From positions 231,873-295,872 of the forward strand of contig ML996689.1 in NCBI GenBank assembly GCA_010356995.1: 64,000 nt of DNA. The letters run 5' to 3'. Made by a program: the position numbers and the translations under genes. This document shows positions 5,475 to 26,118 of this stretch, in pieces (the first letter of the stretch is position 1; each line of letters begins with the position of its first letter). The DNA comes from Trichodelitschia bisporula (taxonomy: Eukaryota). A model generated the notes under the pieces. The model was given only the letters and a program-made list of their open reading frames with translations. It had not been told where the DNA came from and did not search any database.

Positions 5475-6881
5475 TCTGGGATGTGCAAATCACTTTTTGC
5501 AGGGTTGGGTGGAACCTGGGGAAGAGCCTACGGTTCTGGCATATAAGTACGTCGATGATGGGGCGCCGCACGATTCCAGCCTAGGACCTGATGATAAGGT
5601 CTTGCGAAAGGCGGGGCAGATTGGCGTCGGAGGCGTCCCTGCAAGTTCGCTGATCTTCAGCCCAATGGGCGCTTGGAGGTCGATCAAAGTACGGTAAACT
5701 GAGGACAAAGCTGACGCCCGAGGATATTGACGATGCTCTACTTCCGCACGGGCGTGGAGTTCTTATATACGCACTCATTGCTGATGTTCCAGAACGTGGA
5801 GAAGGCCGAAAGGTGTGGGATGTGAGGTTGCAAAGCCGACTGCTGATGTGTGGGAGGCCTGTCGGCGAACAGCGCTAGGCATTTGGTTGGCTGACGAGGG
5901 TGGAGCTCCCCGACGCGGCAGCTTTGAGAGCTTCAAGGACAAGCTCGAGGAAGAGCCGAGCCGCTGGATATCCCGCGACCCCGCCACCCCATGAGTTGCC
6001 GTGGGGAGAGGGGTTGATGGCGCCAGTCGCGGGCTGCAGCTCATGACGAGCCTTGCTGATAAGCGGGCGGCCTCGCTCTACCATTGGCCCAAATGGTGCT
6101 GCGACGGCCGCTTCCGACGATCAATTATGCCGACAGCCTGTCCAAAACAGAGTTTTACAGAAACACTGCGTTGCGGCTGATGATATGCATGGTTTTCTTC
6201 AAAGGTCCAGACGTCGATGGAACATGGTGAGAGATGTGAGAAGAAACTGAGGTACTGATGATATCGAGCAATTGGATAGCCTAATGGGCGATTGATCGCG
6301 TGCCCCCGCTGGCTAGTGCCTACTTGGGGAATCGACTAACTTCTCAAGGCAATGAACCCCCGGCGCTTTACTGATACAATTTGTCAAGGGGAGTATCGCG
6401 ATGCGATGAGACCGAGCAGCTTGTCCCACGATAGTTCACGCCATATCTTCGGGATACCCCGAAAGGCATGAGAGAACATGAGTGGTGCAGCGATAAGAGT
6501 TAGCAGTTCGGTCGCTCGGTCGTATTAAGGGTTGGTAGGCCGTGGGAGTCGAGAGCAGTCGTTTAAAGTCTTGGTGAGGCTTGACCACGAAGATAAGGCT
6601 CGAATGATGCTCGAGGCAGGCAGCTGGAAAGAGATGATGTTCACGATTAACTACATCCGTACAGGACTTCAAAAAATGAGGTGGTAGTGAGCAGGCTTCA
6701 TACGGTATACTCCGTAGAAGACATCTACCAACGGAAGGCAAGTTCGCAGGAGAATGGCTGAATTACAAGCGTCCTATGCGTAGGCAAATCGGCGAATTTC
6801 CTGATATCAGATGTGGCGTTGGATTGATTGACGGACGCACAACAACGCCTTGCATGTTCGGTGTCGCAAGGTCCGAAGCAT

Positions 6882-7060
6882 TTATACAATGGCGGCATTG
6901 AGATAGATGGATCCTGTAGTCATCGTCCATTTGCTCATGTGCTTCTCGACAGTAGGTAGTTTTGGAAAATCCTTGTCTCTATGCTTCCAGAACTTGAGAG
7001 GCATTGCCTTCAAGGGGCACGCACGACGATACCAAGCATTGAGTGATCGCATCCTCTCCA
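6882..7060 (-). pseudogene. Possible decayed hAT transposase C-terminal dimerisation-domain fragment
   Basis: PLKFWKHRDKDFPKL resembles the hAT 'PLxWWK...FPxL' motif. No TIRs or longer ORF found. Confidence 0.35.
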
Positions 7061-7735
7061 GCCCATTGCCCAATGGCCAAGATATCTGTACGGTAGACTG
7101 GAAACCCGACAACAGGGCGGTTCTCATGCAGGGCACCAGATCCCCTCGATGCTCCGCTGCAAGGCACAGATGCCAAACTGGCGGATATGCTCATATCACG
7201 GAGTTGCTACCGTGTCCTTTTGAAACCGATTGTAACCCGTATACGAATGACGCCAGAATAGACACTAGGTCCCTTCGGCGCTAGACCGTGCTATGCGGGA
7301 AGGCGTACGGGGGTTGTGGGGCCGATACGATGCGATATCGGTCGGGCCGTGCGGAATTTGAGGAGTGGATGGTGCCCGACATAGGCCGCCCTCCCGGCCG
7401 ACTTCGGGGGACGGTGGGGTATGGTGGATGCGTATCTATAGGCTTACATGCGAGATGTTCAAATAACGGTATCTCTTAGAATACATGAGCAGCGGGGAGA
7501 TGACGTTGAGTATAGTAACACATTCAGAGAGGAACAGAGCTTGCCCAAGGTTGCTTGAGCACCGGCCTGCACATCAGCATATCTCGTTGAAAACAGCAAC
7601 TCAACACAACGGAAATGGTGCTACATAAATGTGACAAGAAGTAGTAAAGAAGCTTGACAGAGAAGAAGTGAAAGCGGTAGCTATGAGTTAGGGGCGACGG
7701 GAGCTACTGTACACCCTTTGATGACGCCAAAAGAC

Positions 7736-7852
7736 AAAAATATACAGCAGTTGGGATTCGCTGCTGGCCACCCACGCAACTACTAGTCAACCGGTTCAGA
7801 GCTTAACTTCAGTGAGCAGACGGGCACTGGTGTATTCTTAGACCTATGGTCG
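7736..7852 (-). rRNA. 5S rRNA gene, 3' body plus T5 terminator; 5' end displaced by an insertion
   Basis: Minus strand reads CGACCATAGG...CCCGTCTGCTCA...GTTAAGC...CTAGTAGTTGCGTGGGTGGCCAGCAGCGAATCCCAACTGCTGTATA-TTTTT, a typical Pezizomycotina 5S sequence. Confidence 0.92.
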
Positions 7853-9072
7853 CGTTCCGCATTAGGAAATCCGGATTAGGACACCGCCTTCGGCAGCACT
7901 TTAATACGGGTTACCTCATCATGTTATCCTCGCAAAAATACTGTGCTATGCTTGGCCGGCTAGATTTGAATTCGAAAACGTCTTATCTCTGACCTGTGTC
8001 CGTATCCTTAGCTCAATGAGGAAAGTGCTCAATCTGGACTAGCCCATGCATTGTCATCCTTGCTAGCCAATACTTTCCTCCGTCTTGCCGCTAAATCCAG
8101 CGCCAGATTTCCTTCAATTGGAAATTACTGACGTGCTAAGTGATTTTAGATGGGCAGTAACATGTGCTCGTCCTGCCCTCCGCATTGAACCACAACGCCT
8201 CCCTTAAATCGCCCCGTCTTCGGCCCGTCGCCGGCTCCCCTCTCCAGAACCGGCCCGGTTGGACCTGCAAGCGAAGTATCATGACTATCGGAAGGGTCAT
8301 ATCTCAATTAAGCGGGGGCGCCTGTTAGGACCCCTATTCCGTCTTCGCAGTGTCAGCTCTACCTCGACGTGACTCAGGCAACACTACCCCGCACTCCGAT
8401 TCTCCGAATGGGGTGGCTAGGGGGCTAAGTGTGGAGTTGTACCGTGGTGAGGGAAGGGAAGACGAGCCGAGGCAGTGACGCAGGTGGCGAGTGGGTTGGT
8501 GGCACGGGTGAAATTGGTGGCGCGGGTGGAGTTGGTGGCGCGGATGGAGATGGTGGCGCGGGCGGAGGTGGCGCTCCAGAATCGGGCTCTCTGTGTAGGG
8601 TCTCAGATGACAAACATAGGATTATCCGCCTAGCATCCTAACGCAGTTTCACGTCTTTATCACTGGAGGCTAATGAGAGGACATGGTGTACGTAACCGTC
8701 TCCCTTTTCCGGCTTTGATCAGGTTGAGCTAGGGTCTGGTCCCGTCTTCATCAACGCTCTGCTCGACGCAAGAACTGAGAGTGGAAAGCATTGAACACAG
8801 CCACTACATTCCATCATGCCTTCTCTGTGCACTGAAGGAATGGTTAATTCCAGATGTTTTCAGATCCCCTCTGCATTGAAGCCATTACTTCACTAATCTG
8901 GCGACATTTTTGTACGCCACTGTTACCATTTGCTAATGGAGTGCTTGATTTCAAAGCCGTACAATTCCCATTTGTAATCCTTTGCCACTTTCACTCTCAA
9001 AAAGGTATAAAAGGACTAAGACCGCAACGGAGGTGGGTGCGGAGGTGGGTGGGGAGGAGGTTAAGAGAAATT

Positions 9073-12000
9073 TTAGCAAATGAATTCCATGCACAGCACT
9101 CGACCAGACGGACATCCCAAGCCAACCTTACCCTCGTGGACAGCGACAGCTTGAGCTCTCGCACTGCGATACTCGGCTGGAAGCCAAAGAAGCCTTTCCG
9201 TGCCCCTGGCTACCCATTGCTCCTGGACAATTATGGACCGTGGAAGATTCGATGCCGACGCCAGCTGCTTGCCGTCCGGCGAGAAGGCCACGGCNNNNNN
9301 NNNNNNNNNNNNNNNNNNNNNNNNNNNNNNNNNNNNNNNNNNNNNNNNNNNNNNNNNNNNNNNNNNNNNNNNNNNNNNNNNNNNNNNNNNNNNNNNNNNN
9401 NNNNNNNNNNNNNNNNNNNNNNNNNNNNNNNNNNNNNNNNNNNNNNNNNNNNNNNNNNNNNNNNNNNNNNNNNNNNNNNNNNNNNNNNNNNNNNNNNNNN
9501 NNNNNNNNNNNNNNNNNNNNNNNNNNNNNNNNNNNNNNNNNNNNNNNNNNNNNNNNNNNNNNNNNNNNNNNNNNNNNNNNNNNNNNNNNNNNNNNNNNNN
9601 NNNNNNNNNNNNNNNNNNNNNNNNNNNNNNNNNNNNNNNNNNNNNNNNNNNNNNNNNNNNNNNNNNNNNNNNNNNNNNNNNNNNNNNNNNNNNNNNNNNN
9701 NNNNNNNNNNNNNNNNNNNNNNNNNNNNNNNNNNNNNNNNNNNNNNNNNNNNNNNNNNNNNNNNNNNNNNNNNNNNNNNNNNNNNNNNNNNNNNNNNNNN
9801 NNNNNNNNNNNNNNNNNNNNNNNNNNNNNNNNNNNNNNNNNNNNNNNNNNNNNNNNNNNNNNNNNNNNNNNNNNNNNNNNNNNNNNNNNNNNNNNNNNNN
9901 NNNNNNNNNNNNNNNNNNNNNNNNNNNNNNNNNNNNNNNNNNNNNNNNNNNNNNNNNNNNNNNNNNNNNNNNNNNNNNNNNNNNNNNNNNNNNNNNNNNN
10001 NNNNNNNNNNNNNNNNNNNNNNNNNNNNNNNNNNNNNNNNNNNNNNNNNNNNNNNNNNNNNNNNNNNNNNNNNNNNNNNNNNNNNNNNNNNNNNNNNNNN
10101 NNNNNNNNNNNNNNNNNNNNNNNNNNNNNNNNNNNNNNNNNNNNNNNNNNNNNNNNNNNNNNNNNNNNNNNNNNNNNNNNNNNNNNNNNNNNNNNNNNNN
10201 NNNNNNNNNNTGTCCCACGATGCCGACGCCAGCTGCTTGCCGTCCGGCGAGAAGGCCACGGCGGAGACCGCTTTCGAATGGCCCTCGAGCGTATTCAGCA
10301 AGGCACCCCAGTTGTCCCTAACCTGCGGTAGTACGGGCATCCGCAGAGGCATTTTGCTTTGAAACCGCCTTTTTACAAGACTTGCTGTCGGGGAAAATAC
10401 CAGCGCGCTGCAATATGTCTGCAAGGGAGCTACTTCGATGGCTGACCGGTTGTAGAGGACAAATCGTTTCATGTCATGAACAAACTCCGATAGTCGCGGA
10501 CACCTCTGCGCCTGAGCCAAGTATCAGCCAAGTATCCCCACTCTGCTTTACGTCCAGCTTACCGATATCATGGACTCCAAAGACACGATGGCATGGAACC
10601 CTTCGGAAACCTTTTGCATCCATCCAAGCGCCTCAAGCCAATGAAGAAGATGCTCCTTCAGGAACTCATGAACTTCACCGTCATCGTTGAGCTGAGATCC
10701 ACTCTTATGAAGATGCTGTATCCAGTAGAGGCATGCGTACTGCTTCTCAGGATGGAGGGAGCCTTCAACCTCATGACTGTCGACCTCGGTCTTGAGTACT
10801 CCAGGCCGACCTATTCCAAGCATGTCCTGCGTGAGGAAGTCTGACATGACCTGTATGCATTTCGTGGCAAGGGCTTGATGCGCTTGCTTTTCATCGACCC
10901 AGAAACCTGTATCTCCGCTTCTCTTCGAGTCGAGAAGGAAGTCGCGGAATGAAGGGTGATGTAAACGGAGTGCGTCATCTGGTTCCTTTGGAATGTCCAA
11001 AATGGCATGAAGATCACCCAGTGCCTGTCCCGCATTCTGGTCGAGTAGCCTGCTCAAGGACGGGATGGAAAGTGAATTGAATAGGATCACGATACCTCCA
11101 AGCAGTTCCTTCAATGTAGATTGCACCTCCTCTGCATCATCGCCTTCATAGTTGGTAAGAGATTGGCGAAGAACAGTCGCGTAGATCTCGTCGAGATGCT
11201 GTTGCGGCCCTTTCACAGTACTGTGGCTTTGATCGAGGATCAAGCCTAGTTTCTTGGGAGCCAATATTCTTCCTTGTTCAACAAAACGGCATGCAGTTTC
11301 AGCCCAGATGAACAGACCACTAGCGTTCCGGACAAGTGAGTCGATGGCTTGCTCGCCTGGCCAATCTTTGTCAAAAGAGTGTTTGCGGGCTAAACGCTCG
11401 AGCTCGTGCCGTAGGAAGAAGCGGATATCATTGTCAACAGTCGACTTCTTAATGTCGTGGAGCACAAAGTCCAGGTGCTCGCTCGTTGGCATTTCGGATA
11501 AAGAAAACCGGATTGGCACTTCAGGTCTACTCGTTAAAAACAGCCGGAGCCGGGTTTTCTTCAGCAACTGAAAGAGATTCAGAATTTTCCCTATGCCATC
11601 CTCGCCCTCGCATTCGTCCAGGGCATCGACCACCAGGATGTACGGAGCAGAGGAGGTGTCGCCTTCGAGCTTCGACATGGGACCGAGGACGAGATGATGC
11701 CACTGACTGCGGATAGGCTCTTCAATGATGGTGTCTCGCTCCTTCAGAGCCTTGTAGAGAGACCACTTTGCCCCCGGCACATTGTCTGCAAGTTGCGCTG
11801 CGATGCTTGTCACGAACTTGCCGGCATGCCGGACATCTGCGCCACTTCGCGAGAAGAAGAAGCTGGCTCCAAGCCTTCCGTTCTCAAAACATTCGGCGGC
11901 CACAGTTTGAGCCACGGTGGACTTGCCGGTGCCAGCTAAACCACTCAACCAGAAAATATTTGGCGAGTTCTCCCCGTCAGCCCAGGCGTAGATCTCTTTG

Positions 12001-13208
12001 AGAAGTTCGACCCGGGTACCAATCAGGCAAGGCGCCTTTTCCCGCTCGTATGGGTTGGATGGTGTGTCTGCGGCCCTGGGCAAGTTTAGGAGCATTGCCG
12101 GCGCGGGTGGATCTTCTGGTATCTCGACTTTGACCGGCGGGAGCAACAACAAAAGCTCTTTAGCGTACGCTGCCGCCGTCCCCGCCGCGAATGGCTGCCA
12201 GCTCTTGTTCTTGTGAGAGTCCGAGTAGTCGCAGATTCCCCGCACAGGCAGACATGGAAAATCGTTCATCACCCCGGCGGCTTCCATTTCGAAGCACAGG
12301 ACGCCTCCGAGTTTCTCACTGACTTTGTCTCGTTCCTTGGCATCGCGCATGACTTGATTCCCCGAAGCGATCGTACCATAGTGAACCAAGACATGTTCAC
12401 CACGCGTCTGGCGCCGCACGCTATATTCTTTCTTGCAATTATTGCAGTTTTCCTCTTCCTCCTCATGGTTGTACGCAGGGTCGTATAGGATATCTGGCCC
12501 GGCCTTGTCGCGAGCGAAAAGAGACTGGCTGCTGAGCTTTGCAAGGTGATGTAGGAAACCAACGCTTCCTTTCAGATGGCTTGCTTTCAGACTCTTCAAC
12601 GCGCTCAGCAAGGCCTTTGGGGGCGCGTTCAGGAATCCAGTTCGTTCAACCCCGTCAGGCCTGGTCTTGCCCAAGTCGTACTGAATCACTCCGCCACAAT
12701 CCTTGGACGGCCAGCAAACAACAACGTCCCCAAGTCGGATGTCGGCTTTTGCGCTCGGCACACCGCCTCCGATGCCGACCAAGACGCCGAATTGAACCGA
12801 AGTGAAAGTTGACTTCATTTGAGCAACCGCCGAGGCCGCCGAGTTTGTGCCCATCAGCCCCAAGACCATGATGACCGTATTGTGTTCGCCAACGCGGCCG
12901 AGCGTGTAGCTATTGGGATCGGACGCGTCCCGGGGGAGAGGTTGGTGCTCTTCGTCGAGCATCTCCTGGGCTGCTGCAAGTTCAATGTCAAGCGCGCAAA
13001 TCCACCCTACTGTGTAGTCTTCGTGACGAAGTCGGCGGGTTGGCTTCCTGTCGGTGGTTCTCTGGAGGGCAAGTGGTAAGGTTGAGGTCTGGCTGACGTT
13101 GCTCGCGGGGGCAGGTGTGGTGGTCTCACCAGCAACAGGTGAGGGTCGTGAAAGACTGGAAGAGGCATGGAAGCGGCCCCGTGTCCAGATCCGCTTTGCA
13201 GGTGGCAT
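9073..13208 (-). CDS. Fungal NLR: PNP_UDP_1 nucleoside-phosphorylase effector + HET-E-like NACHT + WD40 array (copy 1). Intron 10512-10562; WD array partly in N gap 9295-10210.
   Basis: PNP_UDP motifs YTVGWICAL..E, VGIGGGVP, IRLGDVVV, HYGTIASGNQV, CFEMEAAG, RGICDYSDSHKNKSWQ. NACHT P-loop GLAGTGKST and Walker B VVDALDEC. WD repeats LEGHSKAVSAVAFSPDGKQLASASWD. First ATG at 13208; an upstream exon is possible. Confidence 0.92.
9295..10210. other. Assembly gap (916 N) inside the WD40 repeat array
   Basis: The same 44-nt WD-unit sequence flanks both sides (9251-9294 and 10219-10262). Confidence 0.97.
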
Positions 13209-13662
13209 CTTGGAAATAATGATGCTAGTCAAGAAATTGCGGACTTGTGAAAATGCAGGAGTGGAACTGGAGGTTAAAGGCGAGGCTTTGGGGCTTCGAG
13301 CTGAGCTCAACTGCGGGGCAGAATGCCAAGAATGAGGCTGTGAGCTGTCGGGCGCGGAGAGGACGAGATTGGAGACACAGCCACATGCTACGGGGCATCA
13401 AGTTCTCCTACGAACTGATCAGTTCATAGACGAAGACTTCGCTGGAGGACATACCCAGTTGTTCATCCATGTTGCACCGCCCACGCTGCTTGCGTCGTCT
13501 ATGCCCGCGTCGTAGGTGCTGTACGGGATATCGAGACTGACCAGGGCTCGAGCATAAACAGGCTCGGGAGGATGCCGGAGTGGCGGTCATGGTTTTTGGT
13601 GGGAGTTTGGCAGCGTAGTGAGGGACAGACGGAGCATATAGACTGTTCTGATTGAGGAGATA

Positions 13663-13804
13663 TGTTGAATTTGTAGCGGCAACCTGGGGTGGCTGGAGCG
13701 GAGCCAGGAGACAGGGATCGTCTCCTGGTGAGGTATATAGTCAGCTCACTTCCCACTGTTAGTCAACTAAGCAACTCAGTCATGTTCACACTTCATTTTA
13801 AACA
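13663..13804 (+). mobile_element. Solo LTR (same family as Copia 3' LTR 16171-16311) with 5-bp TSD AGATA
   Basis: TG...CA termini; AGATA at 13658-13662 and 13805-13809; the paralogous site near 22835 is empty with a single AGATA. Confidence 0.93.
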
Positions 13805-14243
13805 AGATATGTAGTTGATTCTGTGGCAGAGGTGGCCGGATAATGTGTAAGATGGGTGTTAGCAAGCGTCCTGGTGCTGGATTAAAGGCTCAATTGGAGT
13901 TGAGCAGACGACATCATATCAGTCATACTGCATCGTGTCTTCAGCGCGGGACTCGAGAAACGTACAGTATCATGGAACAATTGAGCCCGCGGGAGCGTGC
14001 GGCCATTCCAACTGCGAAGGAAAGGCCTCATCCCCATCGAGGAGAAACGATTGTCCATCCACAACTCCACAACTTGTCGTCAACAGACCAACATTGGCAA
14101 AAGGTTGAAGGGATAGACGGCGCCTAGCTTCCCCTCGAACTAGCCTAGCGGCCCCTCCCGTCAATCAAGCGGCCCCATGTGGCCCGTATCTATCGCATTC
14201 CCGGCCTCGCAAGTACTCCATCCCACCACCTCTTCGTTTGCGA

Positions 14244-14417
14244 TGTTAAAAGGGGATGTGTGATCAATGGAAACATCACAGCATCATAAGTTGGACCAAA
14301 GGTCTGTCCATGAACAAGTTGCTTAATTGTCAAAGAGGTGGGGATCTCGAGTCTACTTATACTCGAGCGCTGTGGCTGAAACTGGGTGAGGCTAAACACA
14401 GCCACCGCATTCCAACA
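14244..14417 (-). mobile_element. 174-bp LTR, inverted copy of LTR 14812-14985
   Basis: TGTTAAAAGGGG...TTCCAACA is the reverse complement of 14812-14985. It marks the point where homology between the two large repeats ends. Confidence 0.9.
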
Positions 14418-14985
14418 GCGACAACCAAGGAGCGATCGCCCTGGCCAAGAACCCGCAGTTTCACCCGAGAACAAAGCACATAGGCATTCAGCACCACTAC
14501 GTCAGGGAGAAGCAGGCATCCGGAGAGATTGACCTCCAGAGAAGCGGGTTGCTGATGGCCTTACAAAAGCCTTGCCAAAGGATCGCTTCGAACAGTTCAG
14601 GGAGGCATTGGGTCTTGAATGGGCTCGCACCAGGTGAGGGGGAGAAGGGAACCATGAGGATCGGTCTATCTGCCGCCCCTCCTTGTGTAAGTCCAGGCAC
14701 TCTTTCCCTCACAGAGGGTTTTAACGAGGCCTGGCCGTCTGTCCATGTGGGAGCTTCGTGTCTTTGTGAGCGTACCCCTGGCCTTTTCACTGGGTTTCGT
14801 CTGAGGGGGAGTGTTGGAAAGCGGTGGCTGTGTTCAGCCTTACCAAGTTTCAGCCACAGGGCTCGAGTATAAGTAGACTCGGGATCCCCACCTCTTTGGC
14901 AATTAAGCAACTTGTTCATGGACAGACCTTTGGTCCAACTTATGATGCGGTGATGTTTCCATTGACCACACCTCCCCTTTTAACA
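14418..14985 (+). mobile_element. Ty1/Copia 3' fragment 1: RNase H remnant, PPT and 3' LTR (14812-14985)
   Basis: DNQGAIALAKNPQFHPRTKHIGIQHHYVREK. Polypurine tract GAGGGGGAG lies immediately before TGTTGG...TAACA. Confidence 0.9.
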
Positions 14986-16311
14986 GATCGTGCCAGCACC
15001 CGATGACTTCCAGGCCCCTCAGAGCCTCAAGACCTGGTACGCCAAAGCGATCGGTTGCCTCATGTATGCCATGCTTGGTACTAGACCCGACATCGCATAC
15101 GCTGTCTCCATCTGCAGTCGCTTCCTCGCGAACCCCGGACCCCAGCACGAAACGGCGGTCAAGAGGATCTGTCTGAGGGTTCGTCGTGGAAACTAGCAGT
15201 GGCTGCTGCTCGAGCCAAAACCAATGTATCAATTGATCTCTGACTGACTAGCTCGACCTCCGAATGAGGTCGGGAATGAGTGACTATATACACAACGTCT
15301 GACTTCCAGCATCTTCCATCGATCTGACCAATTTGTCAGGAAGAATACTCCAGATACTCAATTTGTCATCATAGAAGATTCTAGATCTTCATCCCGCAGT
15401 GGCTGGGTGTATACCGTCATTGCTCAGTCTGACAGGATCTTTCGCTACCTTCGGGGCACCATGGAGGTGGAACTTGTGTACCGCGGATCGCTGGAGACTC
15501 TGGCTGGTTACACCGACTCTGACTGGGCTGGGGATTCATCCACGAGGCGATCAACGGCCAGATACATCTTCAACCTCGGCAGTGGAGCAGTAAGCTGATC
15601 ATCGAAGCGCCAGAGTGTTGTTGCGTTGTCATCATGCGAAGCGGAATACATGGGGCAGACGCAAGCAACAAAGGAAGCTGTCTGGTTGCGCAACCTACTC
15701 AAGGAGCTTCTCAAACACGATGAGCCAGCAGCTACTGTCATCTTCGGAGACAACCAAGGCGCCATCTCGCTGGCAAAGAACCCCCAATTTCACGCCAGAT
15801 CGAAGCACATCGCCATCCAGCACCACATTGTACGCGAGAAGCAGGCGGAGGGGGTCATCGACATGCGGTACATCTCGACGAAGGAGCAGATCGCTGACGG
15901 ACTCACCAAGACCTTGCCAAAGGATCGCTTTCCGGCTTTCAGGAAAGCCTTGGGGCTGGAGTGTCGCTTTGGGCGGGAACGCAATGGGTAAACGCTTCTG
16001 GCACTCTTTCCCCTCGCTTTTCCCACAGGATTTTTGAGGGTTTAATGAGGCCAGACACTGCCAACCCCTTCTTGTTTTTGTCTCTCTTGGAGTTTATTCC
16101 ATCCCGGGACATGGGAGGCAGTGGGAGCTCACTGTTGGTGCACTTCCATCCACCTCGGTTTGAGTGGGAGTGCTGAATTTGTGGCGGCAACCTGGGGTGG
16201 CTGGAGTGGAGCCGGGAGAGAGGGGTCGTTTCCTGGCGAGGTATATAGTCAGCTCACTTCCCACTGCTAGTCGATCAAGCAACTCAGTCAAGTTCACACT
16301 TCATTTTAACA
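14986..16311 (+). mobile_element. Ty1/Copia 3' fragment 2: RT C-terminus and RNase H pseudogene, PPT and 3' LTR (16171-16311)
   Basis: IGCLMYAMLGTRPDIAYAVS, GYTDSDWAGD, in-frame TGA at 15596-15598 (expected Trp), SSCEAEY, DNQGAI, QIADGLTK. GAGTGGGAG precedes TG...TAACA. Confidence 0.93.
15170..15434. mobile_element. 265-bp solo LTR inserted in Copia RT, TSD GGATC
   Basis: TGTC...GACA termini; GGATC at 15165-15169 and 15435-15439. Excision restores AVKRI-FRYLRGT. Confidence 0.93.
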
Positions 16312-17479
16312 GAATGCGAGAAACAGCAGGAGTATTGTGGGATCAAAGATGAGCTCCACTGTCTCGGTAAGAATGTGGGCGGTTCTTGTAGAAGATTATT
16401 AGCATGCAAATGCCAAACTGAAGTTACTTACGATCTGGGATTTCGCTCGTATCCTTTGTGAAAGACAAGGTTTGATTTCCAGAACCAGCTTCTGTCTCAT
16501 CCGTTCGGAATCGCGGACTAAGAAGAGCCTGACATGCTCATAACGAAGAACTTTGGGTAGTTCCCCATGACCTTGTTTGGCGTACACCGGCTCTAGCAAT
16601 GCCGCTGGCCTTGTTGCCGTAGCCATCGAAATCAGTATAACCAAGGTGACTTGGACTCGTAACCTCTCGTTGGTATACTGCAGTCTGTCCCATTTCCAAA
16701 GGTGGTTGAGAAGGATGGCCATATCGGCAAAGCTTAGGACAGGCTTCTGTTAGACGGATTCCCATTTGTTACAGCCTTCTGATATTGTAAGTTCCTGTAT
16801 CACTTCGCGCCCGGTATCTTTGTAGCCGGTATCCGTTAAGCGCTCGGGATTGCTTACCTCCGTTGTCTTGTTTCATCGTATCTTTGGCTCGACGCCACTC
16901 CTGTTTCATATTTCCTATATAGTACGAGTTGCCCACATGGTACACTCGACAGTTCAGTCTACGTCAATCAACAGAAACCTTTGTTTCATCTGTTCTCAGC
17001 TTCTCCAGTCCAACAGCTTCGGCTGCCGTTCTCTACTGAGTCCATGCTCAGAGGCTAGATTCAAAGAGATGAACTATACAAAATTAGTTTCGAGTTTATC
17101 AAGATGAGTCTCTTACTGAATTGACACGCCTCCTGTCCTCAAGGCTCCACACTCGGTGATGTGGTATTTGTCTTCGAGCGGCGTGCCACCGGTCATAGTA
17201 GACGTTAATAGTTATCTCTTTTCGGATTCCCTTTCGCGTGTCCAAAGTCCATTTCAGGAACAACATAACCAGCTCAGGGTCAGCCTCCGCCATACACTTT
17301 TCAGGGTCACTGAAAAGTGCATCTCCATTAGGAATATCGGAGGTTCGTGCAGCTTCACAGAACTCTTTCCATTGATGGCGGGTTCGGCTCAGGTTGTGTT
17401 TTGACGATTTTGAGTATCTTGCCTCCACTCGGCAGCTTTTCAGCCTAGAGAGAAGGTGAGCGAAGTTTTGCGTCGACAT
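16312..17479 (-). pseudogene. DUF3435 tyrosine recombinase (Starship captain), truncated. Introns 17116-17074 and 16431-16385; solo-LTR insertion; one frameshift near 16473.
   Basis: Reconstructed peptide ...WKEFC...FLKW...FISLNLASEHGLSRERQPK|PVLSFADMAILLNHLWKWD..YTNERLRVQVTLVILISMATATRPAALL...LRYEHVRLFLVR...LEI/NLVFHKG...ELIFDPTILLLFLAF matches the DUF3435 pattern (ER.RVQ, TxxRP, KG, FDP...LAF). The C-terminal half is lost at the Copia LTR. Confidence 0.85.
16748..17015. mobile_element. 268-bp solo LTR inside captain exon 2, TSD GCTTC
   Basis: TGTT...AACA termini; GCTTC at 16743-16747 and 17016-17020. Removal restores RQPK-PVLSFAD. Confidence 0.92.
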
Positions 17480-17816
17480 TTAGATCGAGGGCAGAAGGTT
17501 GACTTCTGAACCTGCAGTGGTCTTCGGGGATATTTAAGTCAGAGCATTAACTAGTTTACCTCCTAGCCCTCCTAAGGACCATCTAACAACGCCCCTACCG
17601 AAGGCATCTAAGGACGCCTTATTCGTCGTCCTGGAAATTTGAGAAGTTGAAAAGAAGAATCGACAATTCCCTTACGTAGTCGCGCGCTTAATAATGGCAA
17701 CTTTCATTGGACGATATTCGCCAAGCCTGATGACAAAGGATATATGACGGCAGTGTAAATTCAGAGTTTTACCAAATTGGGACGCGACCATAGATACACT
17801 CTCTGATCTATGGCCG

Positions 17817-20800
17817 CGTTCCGCATTAGGAAGTCCGGATTAGGACACCGCCCTCGGCAGCACTTTAATACGGGTTACCTCATTATATTATCCTCGCAAA
17901 AATACTGTGCTATGCTTGGCCGGCTAGATTTGAATTCGAAAACGTCTTATCTATGACCTATGTCCGTACCCTTAACTCAATGAGGAAAGTGCTCAATCTA
18001 GACTAGCCTATGCATTGTCATTCTTGCTAGCCAATACTTTTCTCTGCCTTGCCGCTAAATCCAGCGCCAGATTTCCTTCAACTGGAAATTACTGACGCGC
18101 TAAGTGATTTTAGATGGGCAGTAACATGTGCTCGTCCCGCCCTCCGCATTGAACCACAACGCCTGCCTTAACTCGCCCCGTCTTCGGCCTGTCGCCGGCT
18201 CCCCTCTCCAGAACCGGCCCGGTTGGACCTGCAAGCGAAGTATCATGAGTATCGGAAGGGTCATATCTCAATTAAGCGAGGGCGCCTGTTAGGACCCCTA
18301 TTCCGTCTTCGCATTGTTAGCTCTGCCTCAACGTGACTCAGGCAACCCTACCCCGCACTCCGATTCTCCGAGTGGGGTGGCTAGGGGGCTAAGTGTGGGG
18401 TTGCACCGTGGTGAGGGAAGGGAAGACGAGCCGAGGCAGTGGCGCAGGTGGCGAGTGGGTTGGTGGCACGGGTGAAGCTGGTGGCGCGGGTGGAGTTGGT
18501 GGCGCGGATAGTGATGGTGGCGCGGGCGGAGGTGGCGCTCAAGAATCGGGCTCTCTGTGTAGGGTCTCGGATGACAAACATAGGATTATCCGCCTAGCAT
18601 CCCAACACAGCTTCACGTCTTTATCAATGGAGGCTAATGAGAGGACATGGTGTACGTGACCGTCTCCCTTTTCCGGCTTTGATCAGGTTGAGCTAGGGTC
18701 TGGTCCCGTCTTCATCAACGCTCTGCTTGACGCAAGAACTGGGAGTGGAAAACATTGAACACAGCCACTACATTCCATCATACCTTCTCTGTGCACTGAA
18801 GGAATGGTTGATTCCAGATGTTTCCAGATACCCGTTGCATTGAAGCCATTACTTCACTGATCTGGCGACATTTTTGTACGCCACTATTACCATTTGCTAA
18901 TGGAGAGCTTGATTTTAAAGCCGTACCATTCCCATTTGTAACCCTTTGCCACTTTCACTCTCAAAGAGGTATAAAAGGGCTAAGACTGCACCGAAGGTGG
19001 GTGGGGAGGGGGTTAAGAGAAATTTTAGCAATTGAATTCCATGCACAGCATTCGACCAGACGAATACCCCAAGCCAACCTTGCTTCCGTGAACGGCGACA
19101 TGTAGCGGATTGCGATACTCGACTGGAAGCCAAAGACATTTTCCGCACCTATGGTCATCCATTCCCCGACAATTCTGAAACGTGGAGGATCTGATCCGGA
19201 ACCTGGCAACTGCTTGCCGTCCTGCCAGAATGCCACGGCGTTGATATCCGAATGGCCCTCGAGCGTCTGCAGCGCCTTTCCCGAGCCGGCGTCCCACAGC
19301 CTGACCGTCGAGTCCCACGATGCCGACGCCAGCTGCTTGCCGTCCGGCGAGAAGGCCACGGCGCTGACCCCTTTCGAATGGCCCTCGAGCGTATGCAGCA
19401 AGGCATCCCAGTTGTCCCTAACCTGCGGTAGGCCGGGCATCCACAGAGGCATTTGGCTTTGAAACTGCCATTTTACAAGTCTTGCTGCCGGAGAAAATAC
19501 CAGCGCACTGCAATATGTCTGCAAGGCAGCTAGTTCGATGCTGACCGGTTGTAGAGGACAAATCGTTTCATGTCATGAACAAACTCCGATAGTTGGGACA
19601 CCTCTGCGCCTAAGCCAAGTATCAGCCAAGTATCCCCACTCTGCTTTACGTCCAGCTTACCGATATCATGGACTCCAGAGACGCGATGGCATGAAACCCT
19701 TCAGAAACCTTCTGCATCCAGCCAAGCGCCTCAAGCCAATGAAGGAGATGCTTCTTTAGAAACCGATGGACTTGGTCGTCATCTCTAAGCTGAGAACCGC
19801 CCTTCTCAAAATGCTGCGTCCGTCCCTGCGCCTTCACCCAACGAAGGAGGCGTTTCGGCAGGGACCGAGAGATTTGGCCGTCATTTTTAAGCTGGGAGCC
19901 GCCCTTCTCAAGATGCTGGATCCAGTAGAGGCATGCGTACTGAACTTCGGGAGGAGGACATCGGTCGACTTGACTCGGCTCTGTATCTGTTGCAAGTGCA
20001 CCTGGTTGGCCGATCTCCAATTGGTCCTGCTTCAGGAACTTACACATCAGGTCCATGCAATTTGTAGCAAGGGTTTGATGCGCTTGCTCCTCGTCTACCC
20101 AGAAACCCGTATCTCCGCTTCTCCTCGAATCGAGAAGGAAGTCACGAAACGAAGGATGATGTAAGCGGAGTGCATTGGCTGGCTCTTCTGGAATGTCCAA
20201 AATTGCGTGAAGATCATTCAGTGCCCCATTCACTTTAGATTGGGGGATTTTGAGAAGCCCACTCAAGGATTGGGCGGAAAGTGAATTGAACAGGACCACG
20301 ATGCTTCCAAGCAGTTCCTTCAATGTGGATCGCAGCTTCTCTGCATCATCGTCTTCATAGTCGGTAAGGGATTGGCGAAGAACAGTCGCGTAGATCTCGT
20401 CGAGATGCTTCTCTGGCGCTTTCACAGTACTATGGCTTTGGTCGAGAATCAAGCTCAGTTTCTCGGGAGCCAATGCTTTTCCCTGTCGAATAAAGCGGCA
20501 TGCGGTTTCGGCCCAGATGAACAGGCCACTGGCATTCCGGACAAGAGAGTCGATGTCTTGCTCGCCTGGCCAATCTTTGTCAAAAGAGCGTCCCCGGGCT
20601 AGACGTTCGAGCTCGTGCCGTAGGAAGAAGCGGATATCATTGTCAACAGTCGACTTCTCAATTCTGTGGAGCACAAAATCCAGGTGCTCGCTTGTTGGCA
20701 TTTCGGATAACGGAGACCGGATTGACACTTCAGGTCTACTCGTTAAAAACAGCCGGAGCCGGGTTTTCTTCAGCAACCGAAAGAGATCCAGAATTCCCCC

Positions 20801-23800
20801 TATGTCGTCCTCGCCCTCGCATTCGTCCAGGGCATCGACCACCAGGATATGCGGAGTAGGGGAGGCGTCACCTTCGAGCTTCGACATGGGANNNNNNNNN
20901 NNNNNNNNNNNNNNNNNNNNNNNNNNNNNNNNNNNNNNNNNNNNNNNNNNNNNNNNNNNNNNNNNNNNNNNNNNNNNNNNNNNNNNNNNNNNNNNNNNNN
21001 NNNNNNNNNNNNNNNNNNNNNNNNNNNNNNNNNNNNNNNNNNNNNNNNNNNNNNNNNNNNNNNNNNNNNNNNNNNNNNNNNNNNNNNNNNNNNNNNNNNN
21101 NNNNNNNNNNNNNNNNNNNNNNNNNNNNNNNNNNNNNNNNNNNNNNNNNNNNNNNNNNNNNNNNNNGAGAAGTTCGACCCGGGTACCAATCAGGCAAGGC
21201 GCTTTTTTCCGCTCGTATGGGTTGGATGGTGTGTCTGCAGCCCTGGGCAAGTTTAGGAGCATTGCCGGCGCAGATGGATGTTCTGGCATCTCGACTTTGG
21301 CCGGCGGAACCAACAATAGAAGCTCTTTAGCGTACGCTGCCGCCGTCCCCGCCGCGTACGGCTGCCAGCTCTTATTCTTATGCGAGTCCGCATAGTCGCA
21401 TATTCCCCGCACAACAAGGCACGGAAAACTGTTCATGAGCCCCGCCGCCTCCATCTCAAAGCAGAGTACGCCTCCAAGCTTCGTGCTGACTTTGTCTCGT
21501 TCCTTGGCATCGCGCATGACTTGGTTCCCGGAGGCTATGGTGCCGTAATGGACAACAACATGCTCACCGCGCGGCTGCCGCCGTACCACGCACTCTTTCC
21601 GGCACTTCTGGCAGTCGTCCGGTCCTCCCTCATGATTGTAGGTAACGTGGTATAAATCATCTGGTCCGGCTTTGTCCCGTGCAAATCTTGGGTACTGGGC
21701 GAGCTTCGAGAGAGAGTGTAAGAACCCGACTCTCTCTCGGAGGTTATTCGCCTTTAGGGTTGCTATCGCCTTCAGGAAGACCTGCGGGGGAATTGAGGGA
21801 TCCAGTCCGTTCAAACTTGTCTGGTGTCGTCTTGCCGAAGTCGTACTGCACTACTCCGCCGTGATCCTTGAACGGATGACTGACGACGACATCCCCAAGC
21901 CGTAAATCAGCTGTACTCGGCACACCACCTCCGATGCCCACTATCAGGCCGAGCCGGACAGAGCTGAATGCCAACTGCATCTGGGCAGCAACCGAGGCTG
22001 CCGCATTGGTTCCTATTTGGCCTACGGGTAGGCACGCAATCACGACATTGTGTCCACCGATGCGGCCAAGTACATAGACGTTGGAATCAGCCGCATTCTG
22101 AGGGAGACTCTGATGTTCCTCATCTAGCATATCTTGAGCTGCCGCAAGTTCCATCGGGAGAGCGCATATCCATCCTATTGTATAGTCTTCATGACGAAGT
22201 CGGCGGGCTGGCCCACTTTTAGTGGCTCTCTGAGGGGCAAGTGGTAAAGTTGAGGTCTGGTCGACACTGCTCGTGGGGGCAGGTGTGATGGTCTCGCCAG
22301 CAACAGGTGAGGAGGGCCGTGAAAGGCCGGAAGAGGCACAGAAGTGGCCCCGTATCCGGATCCGCTTTGCAGGTGGCATCTTGGAAATAATGATGCTAGT
22401 CAAGAAATGGCGGAGTTGTGAAAATGCAGGAGTGGAACTCGAGGTTAAAGGCGAGGCTTTGGGGCTTCGAGCTGAGCTCAACTGCGGGGCAGAATGCCAA
22501 GAATGAGGCTGTGAGCTGTCGGGCGCGGAGAGGAGGACGAGATTGGAGGAGACACAGCCACATGCTACGGGGCATCAAATTCTCCTACGAACTGATCAGC
22601 TCATAGACGAAGACTTCGCTGGAGGACATACCCGGTTGTTCATCCATGTTGCACCGCCCACGCTGCTTGCGTCGTCTATACCCGTGTCGTAGGTGCTGTA
22701 CGGGATATCGAGACTGACCAGGGCTCGAGCATAAACAGGCTCAGGAGGATGCCGGAGTGGCGGTTATGGTTTTGGGTGGGAGTTTGGCAGAGCAGTGAGG
22801 GACAGACGGAGCATACAGACTGTTCTGACGGAGGAGATACATAGTTGATTCTGTGGAAGAGGTGGCCGGATAATGTGTGAGATGGGTGTTAGCAAGCGTC
22901 CTGGTGCTGGATTGAAGGCTCGATTGGAGTTGAGCAGACGACATCGTATCAGTCATGTTGTATCGTGTCGTCAGCGGGACTCGAGAAACATACAGTACCG
23001 TGGGACAATTGAGCTCGCGGGAGCGTGCGGCCATTCCAACTGCGAAGGAAAGGCCTCATCCCCATCGAGGTGAAACGATTGTCCATCACAACTCCACAAC
23101 TTGTCGTCAACAGACCAACAATGGCAAAAGGTTGAAGCGCTAGACAGCGCCTAGCTTCCCCTCGAACTAGCCTAGCGGCTCCTCCCGTCCATCAAGCGGC
23201 CCCACGTGGCCTGTATCCATCGCATTCCCGGCCTCGCAAGTACCCAATTCCACCACCTCTTCGTCTGCGAATAAACCGCGCCCAGCTCTCCCCTCGTCGA
23301 ATGGGCTATCGGAAATTACCTAGGCATACCCGCAGCAAGTCACGCCGCGCAAAGCCTTACGTATCAGCGTATCGCTCCCAGTGTGCAAACCTTCACCGGC
23401 GACTACCCCACCGCCCCCCGCACCTTCACGCAGCCGCCTTCTAGCAACCTCTCCCGCACAGCCCCTCCTGCGGCCCAACGGATAACCTCTACTACTACCA
23501 GCAGCTGCAGCAACTCATCCGGTGGTCGCAAGCAAAACTGCCCCCAGTTCCCGACCCCCCCGCAGCACCGCCGAAACCTCCGCCAGTTCGTGACCCTCGC
23601 ACCTCCCTACTCCCATTTCTCGTCTAGGCGCCCGCATAACCCACACACACCCACGTCCTAACCCTGACCCACCGTGGCTTCGTCCATAGCACTGGCTCCC
23701 CCTCGGAAGCCAGCCTAATCACTAACGCCATCTCCCTGCTGACCAGCACGCTGCCCCTCCCCCCGAAACGGCTCCTCCCGCGCACGCCGCACAAAATTCG

Positions 23801-24388
23801 CGCTCCCAATATCTGGTACCACGAACGTATGCTGCCCGTGCGGCACATTACGGTCGCTAATCAACTTCAGGCCCAGCAACGAGCCCTCGTACGCCCCCGT
23901 CCTCATCCGCCAGCGCGCCCGACACGCCCGCCTCAATGCCCCACGCGAGCCAAATAGGCAGTCTGTGCTCGGGCAGCGTGGCTGCTAGGGCGAGATCAGG
24001 CGAAAAGGTAGGCGAGGCAAGGGGTAAAGCGAGGTGAAGAAGTGGGCAAGACGAAGGGGCGGGCGAGACGAAGGGATGGGCGAGACGAAAAAGCGGCATG
24101 CGGGAGGACGCATTGAGGCGGCAGCGATGGAGAGACCCCAGAGGGGCACGAGGCGGAAGCTAGACAAAGTAGCGGAAGGCTGATTCTCGATGCTGGGTAA
24201 GCCGCTTTATAGATTTTCTAATTTATAAAATTCGTCCGCTGGAATTTGCTAGCCATCACCAGGGATACTGAACACTCTAAGCGCCCGACTTCTTGGAAGC
24301 CTGCATTGGGGAAATCTGACGCTAGAAACGCGGTTACAAGCCGCCGGATTTGGCGGCTATTTCCCCGGGGACACAGGTATATGTCTGT
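17817..24388 (-). mobile_element. Starship-like element, unit B: no captain seen, carries NLR copy 2
   Basis: Shares its terminus and ~5.4 kb with unit A. Bounded by cores at 17805-17816 and GACCTATGGCCG at 24389-24400. Confidence 0.78.
19025..22379 (-). pseudogene. PNP_UDP-NACHT-WD40 NLR copy 2, frameshifted, with only ~2 WD repeats. N gap 20892-21166 covers the P-loop region.
   Basis: Same domain motifs as copy 1. Single-base losses near 21790, 19596, 19540 and 19142 split the frame; some fall in homopolymers, so assembly error is possible. Confidence 0.8.
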
Positions 24389-24405
24389 GACCTATGGCCG
24401 TATGT
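24389..24405 (-). rRNA. 5S rRNA gene 5' fragment (ACATACGGCCATAGGTC)
   Basis: Joined to the body at 7840-7740 it gives a 118-nt 5S RNA. ACATACGGC can pair with the 3' GCTGTATAT to form helix I. Confidence 0.85.
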
Positions 24406-24717
24406 GCTTGGAGATGGTGAAGTTGAATTGATAAGGAAAAAATTTAAAGCCGTTGGCACGTCAAGGAAAAGAAGCTCAGCAGCGCCACACTCAACATCGC
24501 GACCGGAGGATAAACGGCCCGTGACCATGGTGAGCAACGTGCTTCAGGCGTAAACAGACCAAACGTAAGGAGCAGAAGACCCAAAAATCAAAAGTATGTA
24601 CGGATGTGCCAATTCCTCCAAATAGACAAATCTGACAAAATTAGAATGCTGAGATCATTACAACGCGTTGACCGCAAAAAATTCCCCTGCCAAACTTCAC
24701 CCTGATGCTCAATCGCC

Positions 24718-26118
24718 ATGGCCAGCCAAACAGGCAGCTCGCAGCTGCCATCTTCATCTTTCCGTAAGCTCGAGTCCAGGAAGATTTATGTTCAGCTAAG
24801 TTGATGCTGCCCAGACCGACTCCCCACCATCTCCGCATCTCAAGCGCTCAAGCAATCCAATGACGCCGGCACACGCGCCATCTCCACAGGTCTCCCGCAG
24901 CTCGACACCATCCTTCTCGGTCCGCAGGAGCGTAGCCGCAGCTCACAGCGCGCAGGCGGACTGGCGCGCGGGCAGGTAACAGAGATGTATGGACCTCCAG
25001 GCGTCGGCAAGACTGCGTTTGGGTAGGTGAACCCCGTACGCTGTTGAGTTACCAGGTCAAGCGCTGACCGAGCAACAATCAGCATTCAAGCTGCAGCTTC
25101 AGCCATTCACGCTGGACACAAGGTTGTCTGGCTTGGTGAGTGGATCGGCCGCGCCTGGGTCTCGACTGACGGTGCAGATGCGGCGACGCCCCTTGCATTT
25201 CCCCGCCTTGAGGCCGTCATCGCGGCTGCTGGGGATGGAACGCGCTCCCCGAAGGAGCTCATGAGCATGGTGCATCACTTTGCGGTACCGACGCTTGCGC
25301 ATCTCCTCGCGTTGGTGCTACATCCCGTTCCATCCTTCCCTCCGCCTGGTACGGGCTTGATAGTCGTGGACGCCGTATCGCTGCTCTTTGAAAACGCCTA
25401 CGAGAACGACCGCCCCAAAGGCACCAAGAACGACGCCAAGTGGCTGAGTGGCCGCAGATACGCCATTCTGGGCGAGCTGATGTCGAATCTAGTCCGCATG
25501 GCGACGCGGGGTAATCTCGCCGTTCTGCTTACTAGCCAGACGTCCACCAGGGTGCGGACTGGCCTGGGCGCGCTTTTGATGCCGTCGATATCGGAACGCG
25601 AATGGGAAGCTGGCGTCTCGACGCAGCTCGTGCTGTTCCGGGACAGGCCACCAAGGGGCACGGAGGATGGGCCTGACGCTGAGAAGTGGCGGGGCTTGCG
25701 ATACGTTGGTGTCATGAAGGTCAAGGGCGTGTCGATGGCCGTGGACGGGCGCTTTGAGACGGTTGTCCCGTTTACGATTCTCAAGGCATGTAGCCTCATT
25801 CTAGCTATCGTTGTCTAACCCCAGTAGACTGGTCTCCACGAGCTCCAGGCTCCCGAGAGCATCAAAGTCCCGATCATCTCCTCGCCGACTCGGCCCCCGA
25901 AACGCCCGTACGACGAAGTTCCCGACTCCGATCCCGACGCTCATCCAGACGAGCTACTTTCGGATGATGATTGGATTTGGGACGATGCTGAGGTAGTACC
26001 CGAAAAACTGGCAGACGCGGGCGCGGACGCGGGTACCGATGGGGGCGCAGGTATCACCACAGACGCCAGTCCATCCGCCCCGGACACCAGTCCGCGCAAC
26101 GAAAACGCACCTCCATAG
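24718..26118 (+). CDS. RAD55: RecA/Rad51-paralogue DNA repair protein (Rad55/Rhp55-like), multi-exon
   Basis: HRLPTISASQAL, ISTGLPQLD, GGLARGQVTEMYGPPGVGKT (Walker A), LIVVDAVS (Walker B), KRPYDEVPDSD tail. Introns start at 24764, ~25023, ~25136 and 25786 (GC donor). Confidence 0.82.

Follow-up and report, generated by a model that had tools for sequence, protein, structure and literature searches.

What is an inverted repeat with the layout of a recombination site doing beside a copy of the start of a 5S ribosomal RNA (rRNA) gene? The question is raised by positions 17782-17819 of a stretch of 64,000 nucleotides (nt) from Trichodelitschia bisporula (contig ML996689.1, positions 231,873 to 295,872; this whole stretch is called the window here). 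A preliminary description of the window, made from its letters alone, had read the repeat as the junction between two elements, A and B, whose ends mimic the 5' end of the 5S gene and regenerate the target. As far as sequence can tell, our analysis confirms it as a head-to-tail joint of two stacked Starship-type elements within one 5S rRNA gene. The DNA sites of Starship recombinases are poorly defined, and for the 5S-specific ones direct repeats alone have been catalogued. The locus gives a concrete candidate site, with two versions of the arms, a spacer of 10-11 nt and a break fixed at 5S nt 22.

The inverted repeat and the divided 5S gene

On the plus strand, ACGCGACCATAGAT (17782-17795) and ATCTATGGCCGCGT (17806-17819) are complementary at 13 of 14 positions around a spacer of 10 nt. 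The arm-spacer-arm pattern is matched once in the window and on average 0.00 times in 100 shuffles, and as single-stranded DNA the segment folds with -14.9 kcal/mol (z -5.2), which was equalled in 0 of 200 shuffles; the repeat is therefore present as first described and non-random. Two inverted arms, a short spacer and a break within the spacer make up a layout like that of lox and FRT sites. The left arm had been taken as the end of B, but it lies in an add-on unit of 150 nt at B's end, outside B's body. The 3' arm of this unit, which is upstream, and the terminal inverted repeat at the 5' end of element A face each other and make up the inverted repeat, whose layout looks like a joined-ends (attP-like) site, such as the two ends of an excised circle would form. 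When the pattern of arms and spacer was sought in metagenomes, six loci were obtained, none of which (0/6) had a 5S gene, and in the most palindromic of them (L003) none of seven open reading frames (ORFs) had a Pfam match; the six were taken as chance matches.

The window holds one full-length 5S match to Rfam RF00001, at 7857->7739 (71.7 bits, gathering score 38, model positions 1-120), and this gene is chimeric, with a first part supplied by an element and a remainder from the host (Table 1). The three minus-strand strings quoted in the preliminary description were located at 24405->24384, 17819->17800 and 7855->7836, and the first of them is the detached start of the host gene. For comparison with other copies, contigs of two sequencing runs (X1 and X2) of one organism, probably the one from which the assembly was made, were aligned with positions 6000-25500. 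One joint among them, 7833->24389, has 8 other letters between its sides, with only 20 letters fitting the far side, and is evidently an uninterrupted 5S copy at another locus; the first 17 nt of the host fragment are identical to the start of this copy. The two halves of one 5S gene are separated by ~16.5 kb, with the break after nt 22.

Including the host start, five copies of 5S nt 5-22 (18 nt) are present on the minus strand, all in register and with 0-4 mismatches. A scan with this 18-mer at up to 3 mismatches found four, against 0.04 expected, and four were reached in 0 of 100 shuffles; the fifth, the terminal look-alike of A, was found at up to 4 mismatches only. The idea of a 5S-start look-alike at the element ends is borne out, with the correction that there are five in the window and not three, the additional ones being 17967->17950 and 8003->7986. 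Inner (a) and terminal (b) look-alikes lie exactly 150 nt apart in both A and B. Aligned, the five have 15 invariant columns and all end at AGA, which is 5S nt 20-22; none of them extends past nt 22. Four different sequences continue from there, as is predicted by repeated insertion into a rebuilt site: the 5' ends of A and of B, the remainder of the 5S gene and, in two places, the 150-nt unit. The boundary direct repeats that match the target, 16/18 for B and 14/18 for A, are likewise in register with 5S nt 5-22.

The minus-strand order evidently runs 5S (nt 1-22), B body, 150-nt unit, A, 150-nt unit, 5S (nt 23-119). A, counted with its add-on unit as about 17799->7836, and B, counted likewise as 24383->17800, are collinear over the segments 7841-14243 and 17805-23270 with 82-92% identity. 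They differ at 594 of 5016 aligned sites, of which 392 are transitions; repeat-induced point mutation is not supported as the cause, with TpA/ApT of 0.54-1.07 and (CpA+TpG)/(ApC+GpT) of 1.08-1.37 giving no signature. A permissive alignment of the A and B 5' regions was meaningless and was dropped. The two copies of the 150-nt unit share 96.9% identity over 128 nt, and the window contains no further copy. Nor did the unit arise as a tandem duplicate of what precedes it. Just inside the terminal arm the unit carries, on the minus strand (7858-7885 and 17822-17849), two copies of TCCTAAT(C/G)CGGA ~15 nt apart, which could be accessory binding sites.

The captain, the DUF3435 tyrosine recombinase of Starships, is present in A in truncated form. 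The gene lies on the element's strand and reads inward from a start codon at 17479, ~320 nt from the 5' end of A; a 5'-end captain reading inward is the defining Starship position (PMC9156397). Pfam DUF3435 was matched by 1 of 58 ORF pieces of A's 5' part (E 2e-11, profile positions 3-85 of 418) and by 0 of 29 ORF pieces from B's 5' 1.2 kb (23200-24420). The stub is 100% identical, in three exons, to an annotated T. bisporula protein (P0138). In tblastn, 33 full-length captain relatives align only to about residue 320 of ~750, and homology ends at 16309. The catalytic half is absent, and these copies are derelict or non-autonomous. The nearest full-length relatives have 27-32% identity and bear no Starship names; annotation of T. 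bisporula places close relatives of the stub, of 79-215 aa and with 53-100% identity to that of A, on 8 contigs. Contigs of other copies leave out ~273 nt of the stub, 16743-17015 (joint 16742->17016, run X2), a segment given as an intron in the public gene model.

Table 1. Features of the stacked elements and of the 5S gene, in window positions.
Feature	Position	Strand	Remarks
Reported site	17782..17819	.	b-type 3' arm 17819->17806, spacer 17805->17796, A's b-type 5' arm 17795->17782
Host 5S nt 1-22, detached 5' fragment	24384..24405	-	Upstream of the stack; unique match in window
Host 5S 18-mer	start 24401	-	0 mismatches
B's a-type 5' arm, ACCTGTGTCC	24369..24378	-	5 nt past break; 10/10 to reverse complement of A's inner look-alike
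Element B body	17950..24383	-	6,434 bp; no captain, broken NLR (NOD-like receptor), 275-N gap
Inner look-alike of B (a_B), ACGGACATAGGTCATAGA	17950..17967	-	2 mismatches (16/18 to host 5S); 3' end of B's body
150-nt add-on unit (mu_B)	17800..17949	-	~130 nt plus terminal look-alike b_B (17819->17800)
Terminal look-alike of B (b_B)	start 17817	-	Within 17819->17800; 3 mismatches
Element A	7986..17799	-	9.8 kb incl. 916 N; captain stub, transposon debris, NLR; ends in a_A
Truncated captain (DUF3435 tyrosine recombinase)	16309..17479	-	N-terminal part only, reads inward
Inner look-alike of A (a_A)	8003->7986	-	3 mismatches
150-nt add-on unit (mu_A)	7836..7985	-	Second copy, with terminal look-alike b_A (7855->7836)
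Terminal look-alike of A (b_A)	start 7853	-	Within 7855->7836; 4 mismatches
Chimeric 5S gene	7739..7857	-	First ~22 nt element-supplied; nt 23-119 (7835->7739) host; Rfam, folding

Two arm types and a proposed cycle of insertion

The ends of the elements carry two matched types of arm, which also differ in spacing: the b type has 14-bp arms and a 10-nt spacer, the a type 10-bp arms and an 11-nt spacer. A's 5' arm (17795->17782) agrees at 13 of 14 positions with the reverse complement of both b look-alikes, and the two ends of A match one another to the same degree. The local scores of this arm are 12 with arms of the b type and 4-5 with those of the a type. The 5' arm of B is of the a type; it reaches a score of 8 with the inner look-alike of B itself and of 5 with either b-type arm. 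Terminal inverted repeats are present in A (13/14) and in B (10/10). The break is placed alike in the two types, at 6 nt from the 3' arm that precedes it and 4-5 nt ahead of the 5' arm, and a joint of a 3' with a 5' arm therefore yields a spacer of 10-11 nt. At this one locus nature provides three kinds of junction for comparison, in which the target meets a 5' arm, a 3' arm meets a 5' arm, and a 3' arm meets the target.

What we read as other loci show an identical boundary. Three joints, each on one X1 contig, skip ~150 nt in register: 7839->7990, 7831->7986, with 4 letters between its sides, and 7796->7986, whose 40 intervening letters read as a diverged 5S stretch. Their depth in X1 is 454-522, about single-copy. 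We take them for loci that are free of the 150-nt unit, with 5S nt ~19-25 following directly upon an inner look-alike. The preliminary description would have been contradicted by homologous elements that lack the motif or end elsewhere; these three other 5S joints end at the same core.

We propose the following mechanism. A DUF3435 captain would recognize two inverted half-sites around a spacer of ~10 nt. Of the two half-sites in the 5S gene, that at nt ~5-16 (CGGCCATAGGT) would be good and that at nt ~27-38 weak; each element would bear a good half-site at both ends, and strand exchange would occur within nt ~17-22. Likeness to 5S would be required of the 3' arm (nt ~3-16) and of the overlap (nt 17-22), and each insertion would therefore leave a near-copy of the target, made up of the element's 3' arm, the spacer and 5S nt 23 onward. 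The next element would then insert into this rebuilt site, yielding a stack, and a 3' arm that meets the next element's 5' arm would recreate the attP of an excised circle, if such a circular intermediate is formed. That an element end supplies a 5S look-alike which rebuilds the target, as had been claimed, is upheld by the five in-register copies, the four continuations and the other loci, whereas the re-use itself is a step that we infer. A crossover at 5S nt 18-22, also suggested earlier, fits the common break after nt 22 but is not proven by it. The locus suggests how 5S genes may become hotspots in which elements pile up.

The rebuilt 5S is probably a look-alike of the DNA site and not a working gene, as judged by modelling of its RNA. 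The duplex of its 5' and 3' ends has -8.5 kcal/mol with the host 5' part and -2.6 kcal/mol with the element's part; in the minimum-energy fold helix I is closed with the former and lost with the latter. The Rfam alignment of the chimeric 5S places mismatched pairs in helices I and II.

We give a probability of roughly 0.7 to the reading that the inverted repeat is a joint in a stack of Starship-type elements which all inserted after nt 22 of one 5S gene. A number of observations weigh against it. The 150-nt unit, which may be either minimal by nature or what is left of a larger element, has no recognizable 5' arm (scores of at most 5), and the weak right half-site in the 5S gene agrees with A's 5' arm at 7 of 14 positions, at the expected offset, which alone is not significant. 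B's 5' end was considered as a mimic of 5S nt 23-44 and rejected, with 468 of 2000 shuffles scoring equally. The direct repeats are imperfect (16/18 for B, 14/18 for A), the two b-type spacers (17805->17796 and 7841->7832) agree at 5 of 10 positions, and no homology beyond the arms was found between the 5' regions, of 3.5 kb in A and 1.1 kb in B, comparison of purine/pyrimidine k-mers included. No intact captain was seen, A's copy being without the catalytic half, and captain relatives with more than 50% identity are all fragments of 79-215 aa or partial models. Among sequencing runs, only those of one organism contained the locus, and neither an empty allele nor a circle junction was seen for it in their contigs (X1 and X2). 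Lastly, given the N gaps and the multi-copy family, A and B as assembled could mix copies, with a contig bridging 17800 unconfirmed.

Among other explanations, the one that survives best supposes a single insertion, after which the tandem arose by unequal crossing-over or segmental duplication between flanking 20-bp repeats; the inverted repeat would then be a by-product and no site would have been re-used. A composite duplication of this kind would give just the observed collinearity of A and B over ~5.4-6.4 kb at 82-92%, with inner look-alike, 150-nt unit and terminal look-alike included. It does not account for 5' regions of 3.5 kb in A and 1.1 kb in B without detectable likeness, each with its own arm type matched to a different 3' arm, nor for four different sequences that begin in the same register after nt 22 or for the identical boundary at other 5S loci, and A and B have diverged at 594 of their 5016 aligned sites. 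We therefore consider it unlikely. It is still less likely that the look-alikes are real 5S pieces carried along as flank, through imprecise excision or recombination between 5S copies, instead of selected half-sites. The inner look-alikes do retain the host-type (A/G)TACGG at nt 3-8, and 15-16 of their 18 positions are those of the host 18-mer, but all five stop at one nucleotide with none going past nt 22, and the b type departs from 5S exactly where the 13/14 palindromic pairing with A's 5' arm results. A mis-joining of contigs from a multi-copy repeat family is very improbable, for despite two N gaps within the repeats, a summed depth many times the unique depth and unique contigs that end at 24381 and 7791/7797, every junction lies in gap-free sequence (the reported site on 10211-20891) and the gap in B corresponds to a 317-nt stretch of A at the collinear position.

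Relation to Starships and other recombination systems

In bacteria, tandem prophages and integrative elements accrete at a regenerated att site; once integrated they leave att sites open to further use, and their tandem joint has the attP arrangement; the joint between copies in the window appears to be of the same attP type. Bacterial integrative elements use integrases of other families and many of them restore a working tRNA gene. Unlike such tRNA-restoring att sites, the element-supplied end here leaves 5S helix I crippled, and the analogy drawn in the preliminary description with the restoration of tRNA genes by attP sites applies to the DNA site but not to gene function, since helix I is weakened. 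The loxP and FRT sites consist of inverted recombinase arms of ~13 bp around a short asymmetric spacer of 8 where strands are exchanged. The window's site resembles them in its predicted inverted-arm layout, but its spacer measures 10-11 nt.

For Starships, the principle that element ends match the target is already accepted: their direct repeats stem from a match between element end and target, excision is free of footprints, and a circular intermediate is only hypothesised (PMC10104507). Starship insertion has been compared with the growth of integrative conjugative elements (PMC9156397). Tandem and nested insertions have been reported, and 23% of 222 curated insertion sites lie in 5S, with at least 5 target sites; 5S-targeting Starships have direct repeats of 6-16 bp that match 5S motifs, and the ability arose at least 5 times (PMC11162782). 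Features of Starships found here are the inward 5' DUF3435 gene (in A only), direct repeats matching the target and terminal inverted repeats, while a complete captain with its catalytic domain and a large size with many cargo genes are not found. The smallest curated Starship in Table S1 of PMC11162782 has 14.6 kb, whereas the units here have 6.4 and 9.8 kb.

A close comparison is with Voyager, a Starship of Macrophomina phaseolina whose insertion, 20 bp from the start of 5S, is predicted to inactivate the gene; it has a 5' captain, direct repeats and terminal inverted repeats, and NLRs are among the usual passengers (PMC9156397). The break in the window is similarly placed, after nt 22 at all five look-alikes against 20 bp in Voyager. 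In contrast, Voyager spans 74-124 kb with 10-47 genes, whereas the units here have 0.15, 6.4 and 9.8 kb with one NLR in A and one in B, and the curated Voyager repeat GCCCTGTATTCT (Table S1, PMC11162782) differs from the repeat in the window. Other Starships that target 5S are Osiris (Aspergillus fumigatus), the Enterprise and Arwing families and Anig_Starship1 (PMC11162782; PMC12153272), and Osiris elements are said to "fragment" 5S (PMC12153272). All of these share with the elements of the window a specific insertion into the 5S coding sequence. Where the sections covered describe their 5S genes, these are fragmented or disrupted, and neither a rebuilt full-length look-alike nor serial re-use is described. 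FoxyFol4287_Starship1 of Fusarium oxysporum (92.5 kb) has the manually curated direct repeat CCATAG (Table S1, PMC11162782), identical to 5S nt 9-14, the core that is invariant among the look-alikes here, though the row does not state whether the element is in 5S. Automated rows of terminal inverted and direct repeats with CTATGG in the supplement of PMC11162782 belong to unrelated elements, and the site of Tangerine is unrelated as well (PMC13486527).

The kind of element and the principle are known already, that is, 5S-targeting Starships, direct repeats and tandem insertions; what appears new is a family of compact elements in many copies, together with the proposed repeated use of a single site. 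In the literature covered we found no description of a serially re-used, rebuilt 5S-like site, of small multi-copy captain-less Starship derivatives or of two arm types at one target, although the supplement of PMC9156397 and Tables S11-S13 of PMC11162782 may list the repeat. The locus also shows that Starship-type elements can occur as small, repeated, captain-less units, overlooked by the standard finder; Table S8 of PMC11162782 lists the species that matches the window's proteins with 3 recombinases and 0 elements. A bolder scheme, which we regard as speculative and somewhat unlikely, would be that captain-less "mini-Starships" (the 6.4-kb unit with a single NLR and the minimal unit of 150 nt) have multiplied to tens of copies with a borrowed recombinase. 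Each insertion would rebuild a working landing site, so that 5S genes would act as expandable docking points, the a and b arms would reflect two recombinase specificities for one target, and 17782-17819 would be a preserved complete captain site.

Copies, cargo and debris

Unique flanks have a depth of ~423 in X1 and 214 in X2, and bins within the elements sum to ~7,000-265,000 in X1. The summed depth over the elements is ~17-600 times the unique depth, which shows the element sequences to be repeated but does not equal a copy number. Runs of N are found at 9295-10210 (916, in A) and 20892-21166 (275, in B), within WD40 and NLR parts, and ORFs across 8848-10523 and 20394-21395 were discarded as artefacts that run over these gaps. 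All junctions discussed are on gap-free sequence, with the reported site within 10211-20891. A third run (X3), labelled as another organism, contributed low-depth pieces (depth 2-7, 0-4 differences) at 6379-6608, 20363-20605 and other places. These may be carry-over between samples rather than a relative, and they are no evidence on habitat or strain.

A and B each encode one NLR of the PNP_UDP-NACHT-WD40 type on the minus strand (Pfam). That of A has a 949-aa open frame (13397->10548) plus a WD40 part, while that of B is broken into at least 3 pieces (22574->21744, 21850->19646 and 19572->18961). At least ten T. bisporula models are 54-100% identical to A's NLR, and its best full-coverage matches from other species reach ~54%; the NLR (10548-13397) looks like a lineage-specific expansion. 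In the WD40 region, contig joints (19248-19369 and 9130-9294) step back 122 nt or jump between A and B, and the number of repeats varies among copies.

The stack is flanked by ordinary core genes, including those for thymidylate synthase, a xanthine/uracil permease, Mob1 and a cyclin. Inside A, transposon debris fills 14244-16309, starting where captain homology stops. It includes a foldback-like insert (14244-14985) with 174-nt inverted arms of 94% identity (14244-14417 and 14812-14985), located exactly at the end of the A/B homology; loose contig ends at 14244 and 14417 suggest that this insert is a repeated transposon. A direct repeat of ~140 nt with 90.6% identity (13663-13801 and 16171-16309) occurs in A but has no counterpart at the corresponding place in B, and its upstream copy (16171-16309) starts exactly at the end of the captain homology. 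Two 98-nt stretches, 14420-14517 and 15749-15846, are 80% alike and read as coding; the ORF pieces there had no match in Pfam, and we suspect that they are retroelement debris.

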